From: a virus
Lineage: Duplodnaviria > Caudoviricetes
DNA: 31,129 bases
Reading direction: 5' to 3' (one strand)
IMG/VR virus record: IMGVR_UViG_3300012682_000012
Coordinates: 1 to 31,129 of that record
A program made the translations under genes and the position numbers. Numbering within the stretch: position 1 is the first letter of the stretch; the number at the start of each line of letters is the position of its first letter. The notes below the pieces were generated by a model. That model was given only the letters and a program-made list of their open reading frames with translations. It searched no databases and was not told the DNA's origin. Shown here in pieces: positions 1,300 to 20,440 of the stretch.

Positions 1300-1655
1300 T
1301 AATCTCAGTTACCCCGATGGGTGCGCCACGAATGACACAGAGAGACCGCTGGAAAGGCCGCCCAGTCGTAGAGCGGTATCATGCCTATAAGGATGTAGTA
1401 AAGCTATCCCTGCCCGGCTACGTCCTGCCGCCAGTCCTCAAGATAGAGTTTCATATAGCCCTACCGAAGTCCTATAGTAGTAAAAAGAAACTCAGCCTGT
1501 ACGGTCAGTACCACAGCGAGAAGCCGGATATTGATAACCTAGTCAAAGGCTTCATGGACTGTTTCGGCAGTGACGCTCATGTCGCTGTACTACATGCCGG
1601 TAAGTACTGGTGTGTCGAGGGTGAAGCACCTTGTATAGTATTAGGAGAAACATGA
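1296..1655 (+). CDS. rusA: RusA-family Holliday junction resolvase
   Basis: KPDIDNLVKGFMD...D catalytic signature, N-terminal P-x-x-x-P-R, typical size. Confidence 0.85.
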   Translation: MIISVTPMGAPRMTQRDRWKGRPVVERYHAYKDVVKLSLPGYVLPPVLKIEFHIALPKSYSSKKKLSLYGQYHSEKPDIDNLVKGFMDCFGSDAHVAVLHAGKYWCVEGEAPCIVLGET

Positions 1656-3697
1656 ATATTACACATTACGATCTGTTCGCCGGTATCGGTGGATTTTCAA
1701 TAGCCTTAGAGGAGGTTTTCGACGATGCAACAATTAAGCATATTTTCTGTGAGTGGGAGTCATTCCCTACCAGCGTCCTTAGAAACCACTGGCCGGACGG
1801 CGAGTTCTACGGTGACATCGCTGACCTTGTTACCGACACCTCAAGCCAGCGACAACAGGGACAGGGGAAGTATAAACGACCCAAGCATACAAAGGCGGAT
1901 AAGATTGGGGAAACAAATACCATTGCAAGCAATAATACAAAGGGATTCACGATTGTTACCGGTGGATTCCCCTGCCAGCCATTCAGTCACGCCGGACGAA
2001 GACAGGGAACGGCTGACGACCGCTCTGTCGGGGATGCTTGCACTTGCGGAAAGCAATGTAGTATTATCGGTGTATGCAACGGAGATACGACAACATCTGT
2101 CCAAGATGCAAGGAACGGCCTCGTCGGACAGTCAATCGAAAAGGCGAGCAAGTCAACGCAGGGTTTTGCCAACCCTGTTCAACAGTCCATCAAACGGAGT
2201 GGAGAGCAGCCAACAGAGAGAAACGTCGAGCAACGGAGCGAGCTTGGGCATTCAAACACAAGAACGAGATATTCAAACGATATGGAGGGAAATGCGTCTG
2301 CTGTGGAGAAGCCAACCGAGCATTTCTCACAATCGACCACATCAACGGAGGGGGGAACGAGGAACGGAAACGAGTCCACAACCAGACATGGAGACTCGTT
2401 ATCAAGGACAACTACCCACCGGACAAGTACCAAATCATGTGCTACAACTGCAACAACGCCAAGCATCGCCTCGGAACCTGTCCACACCAGAAGTAGAGAC
2501 TTTACAATTGTCACAGGAGGATTCCCATGTCAACCCTTCTCACATGCTGGTAGACGAAAAGGTACAGCCGACGAAAGATACCAATGGCCTAATATGTTCA
2601 ACGTCATTAAAAACGTCAAACCCGACTGGGTCATCGCTGAAAACGTGCGTGGGCTTGTTACTTGGAACGACGGACTGGTACTCGAAACAGTGTGCGCTGA
2701 CTTGGAAAGCGAAGGTTACGAAGTCCAACCGCTTATTATTCCAGCTGTCGCCGTCGGTGCGCCGCACAGAAGGGACAGGGTCTGGATCATCGCCAATCGC
2801 CCTGACACCGACAGCCAGCGAGAGCGTGATGGACTTGGTGAAGTTCAAGGCAAGAATGGAGAAGTACCCGAACGGAACGACCATGCCGAACCTGGCGACA
2901 CAGGTAGACAACCTGAAGAAAGCCACCAACATCAAAATGCTCAAAACCCCTTCAGCCAGCGAGTGGAACGGCGGGGCGAAAGTGCAGGACAAATACTGGG
3001 AGGCGAAAGCTCCGAAGTTCAAGACACGGGACCAAGTTGGCCGGATTGGAATAGAAACTGGCAAGAAGTTGCGTTTAGCACCTGCGATGACTCAATGGAT
3101 GCAAGGTTTTCCACCTTCTTGGACGGACTTCCAGTAGATGTTTATGGTACAATGATGGTATATGGGACGCAAAGCTATACTAGAACAAATGAAAATATGC
3201 CCCGCTTGCAAGCAGCCTTTCAATCGCCGGAGGTTCGGGAAAAGATTAGAGGATTTTACCCGATGGCAAGCGAGGAAATTCTGTACGAAATCGTGTGCCA
3301 ACTCGAAAGAGGTCTTGAGTCATCCAAAAAGCTATCTGCGGAGAATTCTGACTATACCGAAAGAAGTCTGCACTCAGTGTGGTGTGAAGAAATCAGACGG
3401 CAAGCAGATAAGCGTTCATCACAAGGATGGAGACTTATCGAACAACAAGCCAGAGAACTTACAGATATTGTGCCAGAGTTGCCATATGAAATTGCATTGG
3501 AGCTTATGGAGGCAGGGTATTGTCTTTGGAAACTATACTCGAGCTTACACCCCAAAGCGGTGGCAGACCCCAGACTTGTGGACGGAGTTCCCTACAGTCG
3601 AGCCAAGTGGAGAAAAGATAGCCTCAAAGCCTACGGTAACGGTATCTGCCCCCAAGTCGCCATTGAAATAATGAAAGCTATCAAACAGGCTATTTAA
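1652..3697 (+). CDS. C5 DNA cytosine methyltransferase, alpha chain (681 aa; motif IV duplicated, motif IX absent, two in-frame inserts)
   Basis: Motif I DLFAGIGGF, II FCEWE, III GDI, IV GGFPCQPFS twice, VI ENVRGL, VIII PHRRDRVWII, X AYGNGICPQVA. Start placed at ATG 1652 (AGGAGA SD, ATGA overlap with rusA) rather than TTG 1631. Confidence 0.92.
   Translation: MNITHYDLFAGIGGFSIALEEVFDDATIKHIFCEWESFPTSVLRNHWPDGEFYGDIADLVTDTSSQRQQGQGKYKRPKHTKADKIGETNTIASNNTKGFTIVTGGFPCQPFSHAGRRQGTADDRSVGDACTCGKQCSIIGVCNGDTTTSVQDARNGLVGQSIEKASKSTQGFANPVQQSIKRSGEQPTERNVEQRSELGHSNTRTRYSNDMEGNASAVEKPTEHFSQSTTSTEGGTRNGNESTTRHGDSLSRTTTHRTSTKSCATTATTPSIASEPVHTRSRDFTIVTGGFPCQPFSHAGRRKGTADERYQWPNMFNVIKNVKPDWVIAENVRGLVTWNDGLVLETVCADLESEGYEVQPLIIPAVAVGAPHRRDRVWIIANRPDTDSQRERDGLGEVQGKNGEVPERNDHAEPGDTGRQPEESHQHQNAQNPFSQRVERRGESAGQILGGESSEVQDTGPSWPDWNRNWQEVAFSTCDDSMDARFSTFLDGLPVDVYGTMMVYGTQSYTRTNENMPRLQAAFQSPEVREKIRGFYPMASEEILYEIVCQLERGLESSKKLSAENSDYTERSLHSVWCEEIRRQADKRSSQGWRLIEQQARELTDIVPELPYEIALELMEAGYCLWKLYSSLHPKAVADPRLVDGVPYSRAKWRKDSLKAYGNGICPQVAIEIMKAIKQAI
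1725..3137 (+). CDS. overprinted methyltransferase beta chain (470 aa; TRD-like repeats plus motif IX)
   Basis: Open for 470 codons in the +1 frame inside alpha; GGAGG SD at 1711-1715; ends RLAPAMTQWMQGFPPSWT (motif IX-like); three L-x-T-P-x-A-S-[DE] modules. Confidence 0.85.
   Translation: MQQLSIFSVSGSHSLPASLETTGRTASSTVTSLTLLPTPQASDNRDRGSINDPSIQRRIRLGKQIPLQAIIQRDSRLLPVDSPASHSVTPDEDRERLTTALSGMLALAESNVVLSVYATEIRQHLSKMQGTASSDSQSKRRASQRRVLPTLFNSPSNGVESSQQRETSSNGASLGIQTQERDIQTIWREMRLLWRSQPSISHNRPHQRRGERGTETSPQPDMETRYQGQLPTGQVPNHVLQLQQRQASPRNLSTPEVETLQLSQEDSHVNPSHMLVDEKVQPTKDTNGLICSTSLKTSNPTGSSLKTCVGLLLGTTDWYSKQCALTWKAKVTKSNRLLFQLSPSVRRTEGTGSGSSPIALTPTASESVMDLVKFKARMEKYPNGTTMPNLATQVDNLKKATNIKMLKTPSASEWNGGAKVQDKYWEAKAPKFKTRDQVGRIGIETGKKLRLAPAMTQWMQGFPPSWTDFQ
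2038..2067 (+). promoter_or_regulatory. putative internal sigma70-type promoter for nested HNH-1 (leaderless)
   Basis: TTGCAC(2038-43)-N18-TATTAT(2062-67)-N6-ATG(2074). Confidence 0.5.
2074..2496 (+). CDS. HNH endonuclease nested in the third forward frame (HNH-1)
   Basis: CPRC...CQPC Zn finger, then YGGKCVCCGE...LTIDHINGGG...QIMCYNCN HNH core; stop lies 4 nt before motif IV copy 2. Confidence 0.88.
   Translation: MQRRYDNICPRCKERPRRTVNRKGEQVNAGFCQPCSTVHQTEWRAANREKRRATERAWAFKHKNEIFKRYGGKCVCCGEANRAFLTIDHINGGGNEERKRVHNQTWRLVIKDNYPPDKYQIMCYNCNNAKHRLGTCPHQK
3162..3671 (+). CDS. HNH endonuclease nested in the alpha chain, in the beta frame (HNH-2)
   Basis: CPAC...CTKSC Zn finger; CTQCG...VHHKDGDLSNNKPENLQILCQSCH HNH core; TGgTACAAT (3145-53) lies 8 nt before the ATG. 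Confidence 0.9.
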   Translation: MGRKAILEQMKICPACKQPFNRRRFGKRLEDFTRWQARKFCTKSCANSKEVLSHPKSYLRRILTIPKEVCTQCGVKKSDGKQISVHHKDGDLSNNKPENLQILCQSCHMKLHWSLWRQGIVFGNYTRAYTPKRWQTPDLWTEFPTVEPSGEKIASKPTVTVSAPKSPLK

Positions 3698-19804: not shown

Positions 19805-20404
19805 TTACGGAGTTTCATGTGGGGGTATGACATTTAATAAGGCAAACTGGCCGTGTAGTTCAAGGGCTTTACGGTTGTAGGCTTCGGCGGCTTGAAGAGA
19901 CGTATCATAGCGACCGAGGTGAATGTTTGATAATCGTGCTACGTACTTCTGTCGATTCTTATCATATGTCACACCTTTATAACCAGTTGTATTACTTTTC
20001 CTAATTCGTAAATTCCACTTATTCTGAGCTGAAGTGCAAGGCCTGAGATTACATATCCTATTATCAAGAGGGTCGTGATTTATATGATCTATTTCTAGTC
20101 CTTCAGGAAAATTCATAACGAATTGGTGCATAGTCAGATTATTATTTGTTGCTACATAACCAGTAGAAGTTTTATACCACCTAATTCTATCCAACATGGC
20201 ACATTCTCTGTCTACAATTGCATGCCCGTCCTTGCCATTTATACCTAGAGGAATCCTAGCAATATCACCATCTATGATAGCTGGTCGATAATCAAAGCGG
20301 GTTTCTATGATACCGCCGTACACTCTTGTCTGAGTATAGTGTCTATCACAATAATTTCTAGACTTGATTACCCTAGTACATTTTTCAGCGGTACATATAT
20401 TCAT
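19805..20404 (-). CDS. HNH-AP2 homing endonuclease
   Basis: C-x4-C...YCDRHY; IDHINHDPLDNRICNLR; TGYKGV...HLGRY...AAEAYN; start placed at ATG 20404 because TGaTATAAT lies 7 nt upstream. Confidence 0.9.
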   Translation of the reverse strand: MNICTAEKCTRVIKSRNYCDRHYTQTRVYGGIIETRFDYRPAIIDGDIARIPLGINGKDGHAIVDRECAMLDRIRWYKTSTGYVATNNNLTMHQFVMNFPEGLEIDHINHDPLDNRICNLRPCTSAQNKWNLRIRKSNTTGYKGVTYDKNRQKYVARLSNIHLGRYDTSLQAAEAYNRKALELHGQFALLNVIPPHETP

Positions 20405-20440
20405 AAGTACCATTATATCAGTTCCAAACAGTTATGACTA

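Follow-up and report, generated by a model that had tools for sequence, protein, structure and literature searches.

Can a mobile nuclease gene settle in DNA that already encodes two proteins in different reading frames, and how would the host proteins be spared? The question is raised by a methyltransferase locus in IMG/VR virus record IMGVR_UViG_3300012682_000012, analysed over its positions 1 to 31,129 (31,129 nucleotides, nt; hereafter the window), a phage contig with terminase, head, and virion genes. Here a gene for an HNH nuclease, HNH1, lies within a C5-methyltransferase gene that encodes two overlapping chains, alpha and beta. We consider it likely that HNH1 is part of a mobile cassette that entered after motif IV of the two-frame methyltransferase, that the cassette is probably read without splicing as a linker in both chains, and that the nuclease is probably expressed from a promoter of its own.

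A nuclease gene in the third frame of a two-frame methyltransferase

The alpha chain (1652..3697, + strand, 681 amino acids, aa) contains motifs I–III, motif IV twice, and motifs VI–VIII and X, and is recognised as a C5-methyltransferase by Pfam (PF00145, E 1e-45) and by TIGR00675 (dcm, above cut-off). Its start is taken as the ATG at 1652, preceded by AGGAGA; the open reading frame (ORF) lister places the start at TTG 1631. The beta chain (1725..3137, + strand, 470 aa) is nested in the +1 frame, with a strong Shine–Dalgarno (SD) sequence, GAGGAGG, 9 nt upstream of its ATG. It has LPTP-type repeats and a motif IX-like end, and matches phrog_1008 (E 1e-19, covering aa 239-468 only). This two-frame layout is ordinary for the methyltransferase family. 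The best 80 among 210 viral relatives of the motif IV–VIII region (5 of the 80 with less than 555 nt available upstream of motif IV) all have a single motif IV; the +1 frame is open across it in 79, a motif IX-like G-[FYL]-P block with invariant W, G, and P columns ends beta in 73, and an LPTP-type repeat lies upstream of motif IV in 32. Of 67 beta chains, Pfam assigns one, weakly, to DNA_methylase, and a search of PDB sequences with beta returned no match. The beta chain of the window begins with MQQLSIF (1725-1745), and QLxLF-like starts are found in many related beta chains; we take this start to resemble the sliding-clamp binding motif (consensus QLxLF).

HNH1 (2074..2496, + strand, 140 aa) takes the remaining forward frame, the three ORFs thus lying in three different frames. 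The initial annotation of this DNA reported all three as open over 2074-2496, which is borne out: the stretch free of stops in every forward frame is in fact 434 nt long (2060..2493, + strand), bounded by TAGs at 2059 and 2494, and the second-longest such stretch on either strand of the whole window measures 172 nt. The nuclease is of the zinc-finger plus beta-beta-alpha-metal type (phrog_2255, E 1e-15) and possesses the catalytic His/Asn and the CxxC zinc sites of that class of HNH nucleases, in the arrangement DH...N...CxNCNN (D88 H89, N95, C123-x-N-C-N-N); D88, H89, N95, C123, C126, and N127 are invariant in 4 of 4 aligned sequences. It had been described as motif-complete, which holds for the PHROG match and the invariant residues, but the motif is the HNN variant and HNH1 has no match in Pfam. 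The PDB sequences yielded only a weak match to a maturase HNH (E 0.06), and no close copy was found among cultured phage records, where the best match is below 60% identity. HNH1 belongs to a widespread family of free-standing nucleases, and for this reason we reject de novo overprinting. The earlier notion that the element overprints itself fails on the same ground; the nuclease comes from the free-standing family, with codons adjusted to keep the host frames open.

The HNH1 element is real and not an assembly artefact. One contig from run X1, probably the source sample, covers positions 1595-2718 of the window, including both junctions, with zero differences.

Stop codons are avoided in the host frames

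The insert is 555 nt long from repeat to repeat and, as initially annotated, contains no stop in either host frame, which suggests that it is translated without splicing and serves as a linker in each chain. Random synonymous coding of HNH1 with the codon usage of this phage would give an expected 4.1 stops in the alpha frame and 14.2 in the beta frame, compared to none observed (probability of an open frame 0.004 for alpha and 8e-9 for beta). A stop in the beta frame arises when an HNH codon followed by AA, AG, or GA has T in its third position, and we refer to such codons as at-risk sites. T occupies the third position at 0 of 34 at-risk sites of HNH1, compared to 15 of 68 safe sites (p = 0.002). 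In L137, a further allele carrying the insert, the corresponding counts are 0 of 36 at-risk and 11 of 58 other sites (p = 0.006). Eight embedded relatives that are coded in two frames only served as a control; pooled, they have T at 88 of 266 at-risk sites and 126 of 419 other sites. Stops are thus avoided specifically in the beta frame of HNH1.

The control sequences come from a set of 70 HNH relatives, all distinct, found at 137 loci (L136, which is the window, and L139 were excluded). Nine of the 70 sit in a C5-methyltransferase. The alpha frame is open in all nine, and the beta frame in one, the same-site allele L137; the other eight contain 5–17 beta-frame stops. These eight dual-only relatives are located between motifs I–III and IV, upstream of the beta start, which lies near the HNH stop in every case. 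None of the other 61 relatives is open in both additional frames; the +1 frame is open in 3 (one of them L147) and the +2 frame in none. A weak indication, from definite beta stops deduced from alpha proteins alone, gives 0 of 8 same-site proteins compared to 3 of 10 with an insert at the III–IV site.

Codon differences between the window and L137 separate the three frames. The ratio of synonymous to non-synonymous differences is 27:36 in the HNH frame, 12:54 in the alpha frame, and 8:57 in the beta frame, indicating that the nuclease is the protein under selection and that its alpha and beta shadows are just kept stop-free, as expected of linkers. Both frames remain open over 47 third-position differences between the two sequences.

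Occupied, empty, and hybrid alleles

Motif IV is doubled in 8 of 246 stored proteins (P0001-P0008), all 8 of which carry this insert, with 47-58% identity to the insert of the window; P0121, 61% identical, is a beta chain of full length belonging to another lineage. DNA was recovered for two further occupied alleles, L137 and L138, each open in three frames over 443 nt. The two have one identical 563-nt block between flanks that are 77% and 66% identical. An identical block in divergent host genes points to recent homing, and the distribution is patchy, the element having diverged less than the host genes. Neither a degenerate pattern covering the 5' part of the element nor the insert alignment had a match in the viral contigs. 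The sole GTDB match, L139, was rejected as a chance match in an unrelated gene.

The empty form of the L137 host gene is represented by L021, to which copy 1 of motif IV in L137 is identical at 66 of 66 nt. The L021 sequence runs on into YLW, which places the insertion point after the DDR codons. The corresponding empty-allele joint, at position 2024 of the window, occurs in runs X1-X4, with short pieces only in X2-X4; X2 also contains two pieces of the element. A third kind of allele is seen in L020 (2980-3090), where a single motif IV has its 5' part from copy 1 and its 3' part from copy 2, with the switch inside an 8-nt run common to both. That is too little shared sequence for an assembly chimera; L020 fits recombination between the copies. 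L020 is likely the expected scar of element loss, that is, an excision product, and conversion without the nuclease is a possible origin of the hybrid. Taken as a series, L021, L137, and L020 suggest that HNH1 would cut the empty and not the occupied allele.

Insert-free alleles (L021, runs X1-X4), alleles occupied at the same site (L137, L138, P0001-P0008), stop-codon depletion, and sequence spanning the junctions had been named in the initial annotation as checks on its interpretation, and all were found.

The duplicated motif IV block

The flanks of the insert encode motif IV twice, in two repeats of 74 nt (1946-2019 and 2501-2574) that are 70% identical and lie 555 nt apart. Copy 1 (1946..2024, + strand) is host-derived and keeps the beta consensus, the insertion falling after 2023/2024. 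The 5' end of the element (2025..2073, + strand) follows, with a promoter-like site inside; its first codons retain the conserved beta Gly (TTALSG) and lose the YLW of alpha, so that the near-invariant Trp of alpha after copy 1 is destroyed. Copy 2 (2501..2578, + strand) is borne by the element and synonymously recoded in alpha, and is followed by an intact YQWP helix. Copy 2 is identical in L137 and L138 despite their differing hosts, and since it lies within the identical block of these two alleles it travels with the element.

The copies were scored with alpha and beta profiles built from 69 distinct ungapped single-copy alleles, L020 included. Alpha scores are normal for both. The beta profile gives 61 for copy 1 and 36 for copy 2 in the window, where random synonymous coding gives 35 +/- 7, and 62 and 39 in L137. 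Copy 2 and the motifs downstream of it score like empty alleles, and in P0007 the catalytic PCQPFS is lost from copy 1 only. Copy 2 is likely the working catalytic motif for alpha. We infer that copy 2 is the one used in alpha, where copy 1 and the nuclease shadow would be looped out in the III–IV loop (a loop whose tolerance of inserts is seen in the dual-only relatives), and that beta uses copy 1. The duplicated block would then be the key to the mechanism, the host copy and the recoded copy dividing the beta and alpha roles.

Expression of HNH1 and absence of splicing signatures

A predicted promoter, TTGCAC-N18-TATTAT (2038..2067, + strand), precedes HNH1. As reported initially, its -10 box (2062) lies 6 nt before the HNH1 ATG, but the -35 box matches the consensus at just 3 of 6 positions, and a consensus promoter scan did not list the site. 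Of 9 embedded HNH genes whose start was located, 5 have TAnnnT exactly 6 nt upstream of the ATG, compared to 1 among 22 of the phage's other genes, and a leaderless HNH1 mRNA is predicted from this placement.

An intron was rejected because the locus has no group I or group II match in Rfam and the insert no excess of RNA folding relative to shuffled sequences (z -0.15 and -0.13). An intein was rejected as well, no intein domain being found by Pfam in either host frame; the insert in alpha ends with HTRSRD before copy 2, and does not have the terminal His-Asn before Cys, Ser, or Thr that is typical of inteins. Together with the avoidance of beta stops, these results agree with the initial proposal of a splicing-independent element open in both host frames.

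A proposed mechanism and its alternatives

The nuclease would cut an empty allele at, or close to, the conserved junction of motif IV and YLW, and repair would copy the cassette in. The 3' end of the cassette would supply a recoded motif IV, leading into the next helix of the host, and in alpha the old copy and the nuclease shadow would be looped out in the tolerant variable loop between motifs III and IV. Beta starts upstream of the insertion site, so its frame would have to stay open too; its sequence would be preserved by the old copy and the first codons of the cassette, with the nuclease avoiding T at the third positions that make stops. Recoding and interruption would render the occupied allele immune and restrict recombination between the copies, and rare recombination between them would leave a single recoded, probably resistant allele such as L020. 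A stronger version, on which we are evenly divided, is that some 140 codons are maintained by selection as triple-coded DNA with all three products made and working, the homing nuclease invading a dual-coded catalytic motif and rescuing both host proteins together, beta by the old copy and alpha by the recoded copy, with stops purged from the two shadow frames. The element would then act as a natural cleave-and-rescue cassette, and an allele from which it was excised would be resistant.

Several observations weigh against this reading. The protein alleles were found through an open alpha frame, a search to which broken alleles are invisible. Host and element distances are correlated (Spearman 0.66 overall), implying that much of the transmission is vertical and arguing against pure mobility. 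Element DNA is available from just two independent lineages, and 25 at-risk sites are common to the window and L137 (in 18 of them the beta codon is identical; 6 and 11 sites are specific to one lineage), so the two tests of T avoidance are not fully independent. L020 carries the recoded block alone, and this, together with the LPTP-type repeat lying upstream of motif IV in 32 of 80 related loci, suggests that the upstream part of beta may be non-essential. The pairing of alpha with beta in this phage family is presumed by analogy with M.EcoHK31I, and read-through, cleavage, and methylation by the occupied allele are themselves deduced from sequence.

An alternative that we regard as unlikely is that alpha reads through the homing element and the working beta arises by re-initiation downstream of the nuclease, the open beta frame just avoiding a truncated peptide or transcriptional polarity. 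A short re-initiated beta is possible in L137 and L138, where a beta-frame ATG overlaps the HNH stop, the beta ATG is near the HNH stop in 8 of 8 dual-only relatives, L020 has the recoded block alone, and the beta subunit of M.EcoHK31I tolerates N-terminal loss and uses internal starts (PMC2836561). In the window, however, the first beta-frame ATG appears 50 nt past the HNH1 stop, and the beta ATG at 1725 has its strong SD; moreover, the first codons of the element keep the beta Gly while the alpha Trp is destroyed, and the dual-only relatives tolerate 5–17 stops in the beta frame. Less probable still is that some unrecognised mechanism (an intron, an intein, or ribosomal bypass from one repeat to the other) takes the insert out of the RNA or the protein. 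The insert length is a multiple of three, direct repeats flank it, and unorthodox phage introns exist (PMC11855218), but no signature of an intron, structured RNA, or intein was detected, almost no non-coding room is left, and removal at the RNA level would need no avoidance of stops in two frames.

We attach an equally small probability to inactivation of the methyltransferase by the inserts, with the open frames as a recent relic. Phage methylases are described as dispensable (same source), and alpha bears two long shadow inserts; against this, both frames have stayed open despite the 47 third-position differences that separate the window from L137, and copy 2 and the downstream motifs score like those of empty alleles. 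An assembly chimera joining two phage genes at the repeat is already largely refuted and practically negligible. The window is a contig of metagenomic origin, and run X1 also contains related empty alleles, but the repeats are just 70% identical, a single contig spans both junctions without differences, and the same layout is found in seven other proteins.

Comparison with known systems

The idea of an out-of-frame HNH read through without splicing has already been put forward under the name ShiLan domain (Arsenault, Gosselin, Gogarten 2025; PMC11855218), in an account of out-of-frame HNH genes in phage methylases that also treats the Pacc40 gp60 insertion. That account proposes read-through without splicing and leaderless translation, and reports a similarity of 11 residues at the junctions. 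The strategy itself is therefore not new but that of this model, leaderless translation and a short flanking duplication included; the interpretation in the initial annotation is partly supported, being largely right and not the first of its kind. The window resembles ShiLan in having an out-of-frame HNH within a phage methylase whose host frame is stop-free, no signs of an intron or intein, a patchy distribution, a proposed leaderless translation, and a short junction duplication (11 aa in ShiLan). In other respects the two differ. The ShiLan methylase gp65 has a DPPY motif of the amino-methyltransferase type and no match to alpha, and the ShiLan HNH has no significant match to HNH1, so that no homologous element at the same site was found there. 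The third frame is closed over part of the ShiLan HNH, whereas all three frames are open here. The host in the window is a two-frame C5 enzyme, and the duplicate of 26 codons spans a catalytic motif whose copies would split the alpha and beta roles.

The host itself is comparable to M.EcoHK31I, where alpha has motifs I–VIII as well as X, and beta is encoded inside alpha in another frame with a motif IX-like end (PMC3404938, PMC2836561). The window likewise has its beta ORF inside that of alpha, in a different frame and closing with a motif IX-like block. The target recognition domain of M.EcoHK31I is assigned to alpha, whereas the beta chain of the window is longer, starts near motif I, and has variable LPTP-type repeats, putative target recognition domains by the label of the initial annotation. 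The accessible accounts of M.EcoHK31I describe no nuclease insert, and the window has one. The WHO elements of yeasts home together with a resistant piece of the host gene (PMC7282813); there the whole 3' end is replaced and the nuclease lies outside the host ORF, whereas in the window the duplication covers a short internal motif and both host frames overlap the nuclease. Inteins with an out-of-frame endonuclease (bioRxiv 10.1101/2025.01.02.630785) also have the nuclease in a frame different from that of the host, but are excised by protein splicing.

For triple coding as such, human SRD5A1 has more than 100 codons open in three frames with translation shown, and long triple translation is described as rare in humans (PMC13352861). 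Its additional frames look regulatory and unselected as proteins, whereas each frame of the triple-open stretch belongs to a conserved protein family; conversely, triple translation is demonstrated for SRD5A1 and is a prediction for HNH1 and its host chains. The accessible part of PMC8227390 does not mention triple overlaps of such length. The literature searched, in which subscription journals are mostly not covered, gave no paper describing a two-frame methylase with a triple-coded nuclease inside it.

A second element and other embedded HNH genes

The methyltransferase gene contains a second element at motif IX of beta (3102..3569, + strand), which was absent from the initial annotation. 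It carries a recoded beta end with a stop (3135) and a TG-n-TACAAT box (3145-3153), and is open in alpha only. Its nuclease ORF, HNH2 (3162..3671, + strand, 169 aa), lies in the frame of beta and matches Pfam HNH (E 1e-4, above cut-off) and phrog_1271 (E 8e-13); it is unrelated in sequence to HNH1, with just a weak match over 20 aa. The element entered after 3101, with empty joints from 3101 to 3570/3576 in runs X1 and X4. Its site is empty in L013 and L015 and occupied in L025 and P0012, and a related element is found in L057. HNH2 mirrors the trick of HNH1 at motif IX. The HNH2 ORF continues in the beta frame through the original beta end of the host. A third HNH gene of this phage is free-standing (19808-20413, − strand; phrog_99, E 5e-40) among the virion genes, and a RusA-like gene precedes the methyltransferase locus.

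Members of the HNH1 family also occupy the loop between motifs I–III and IV of other C5-methyltransferases (L081, L082, L140, L141, L149, L152, L157, and L188, and about 30 stored proteins). These insertions are dual-coded only, and beta starts near the HNH stop. Motif III is duplicated instead in P0012-P0014. In L147 (1303-3126), an HNH1-family gene lies out of frame in a likely N4/N6 methyltransferase ORF, a host of the ShiLan type, and the third frame has a single stop. The methyltransferase with an embedded HNH in L188 (1738-3594) is also split downstream by a second, free-standing HNH ORF, and L081 (1391-1455) contains an int-alpA RNA above the Rfam gathering score.

Implications

It is very rare for a long stretch of DNA to be triple-coded with every frame belonging to a conserved protein family, and existing annotation misses two of the three genes at this locus. 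The system comes with built-in controls, as the same nuclease family occurs free-standing, dual-coded, and triple-coded, and empty, occupied, and excised alleles are found in one host gene. The question raised by ShiLan, whether such inserts are read through and how they are tolerated, is thereby made directly testable. For the phage C5-methyltransferases themselves, the case provides strong indirect evidence that the nested beta chain is really translated.

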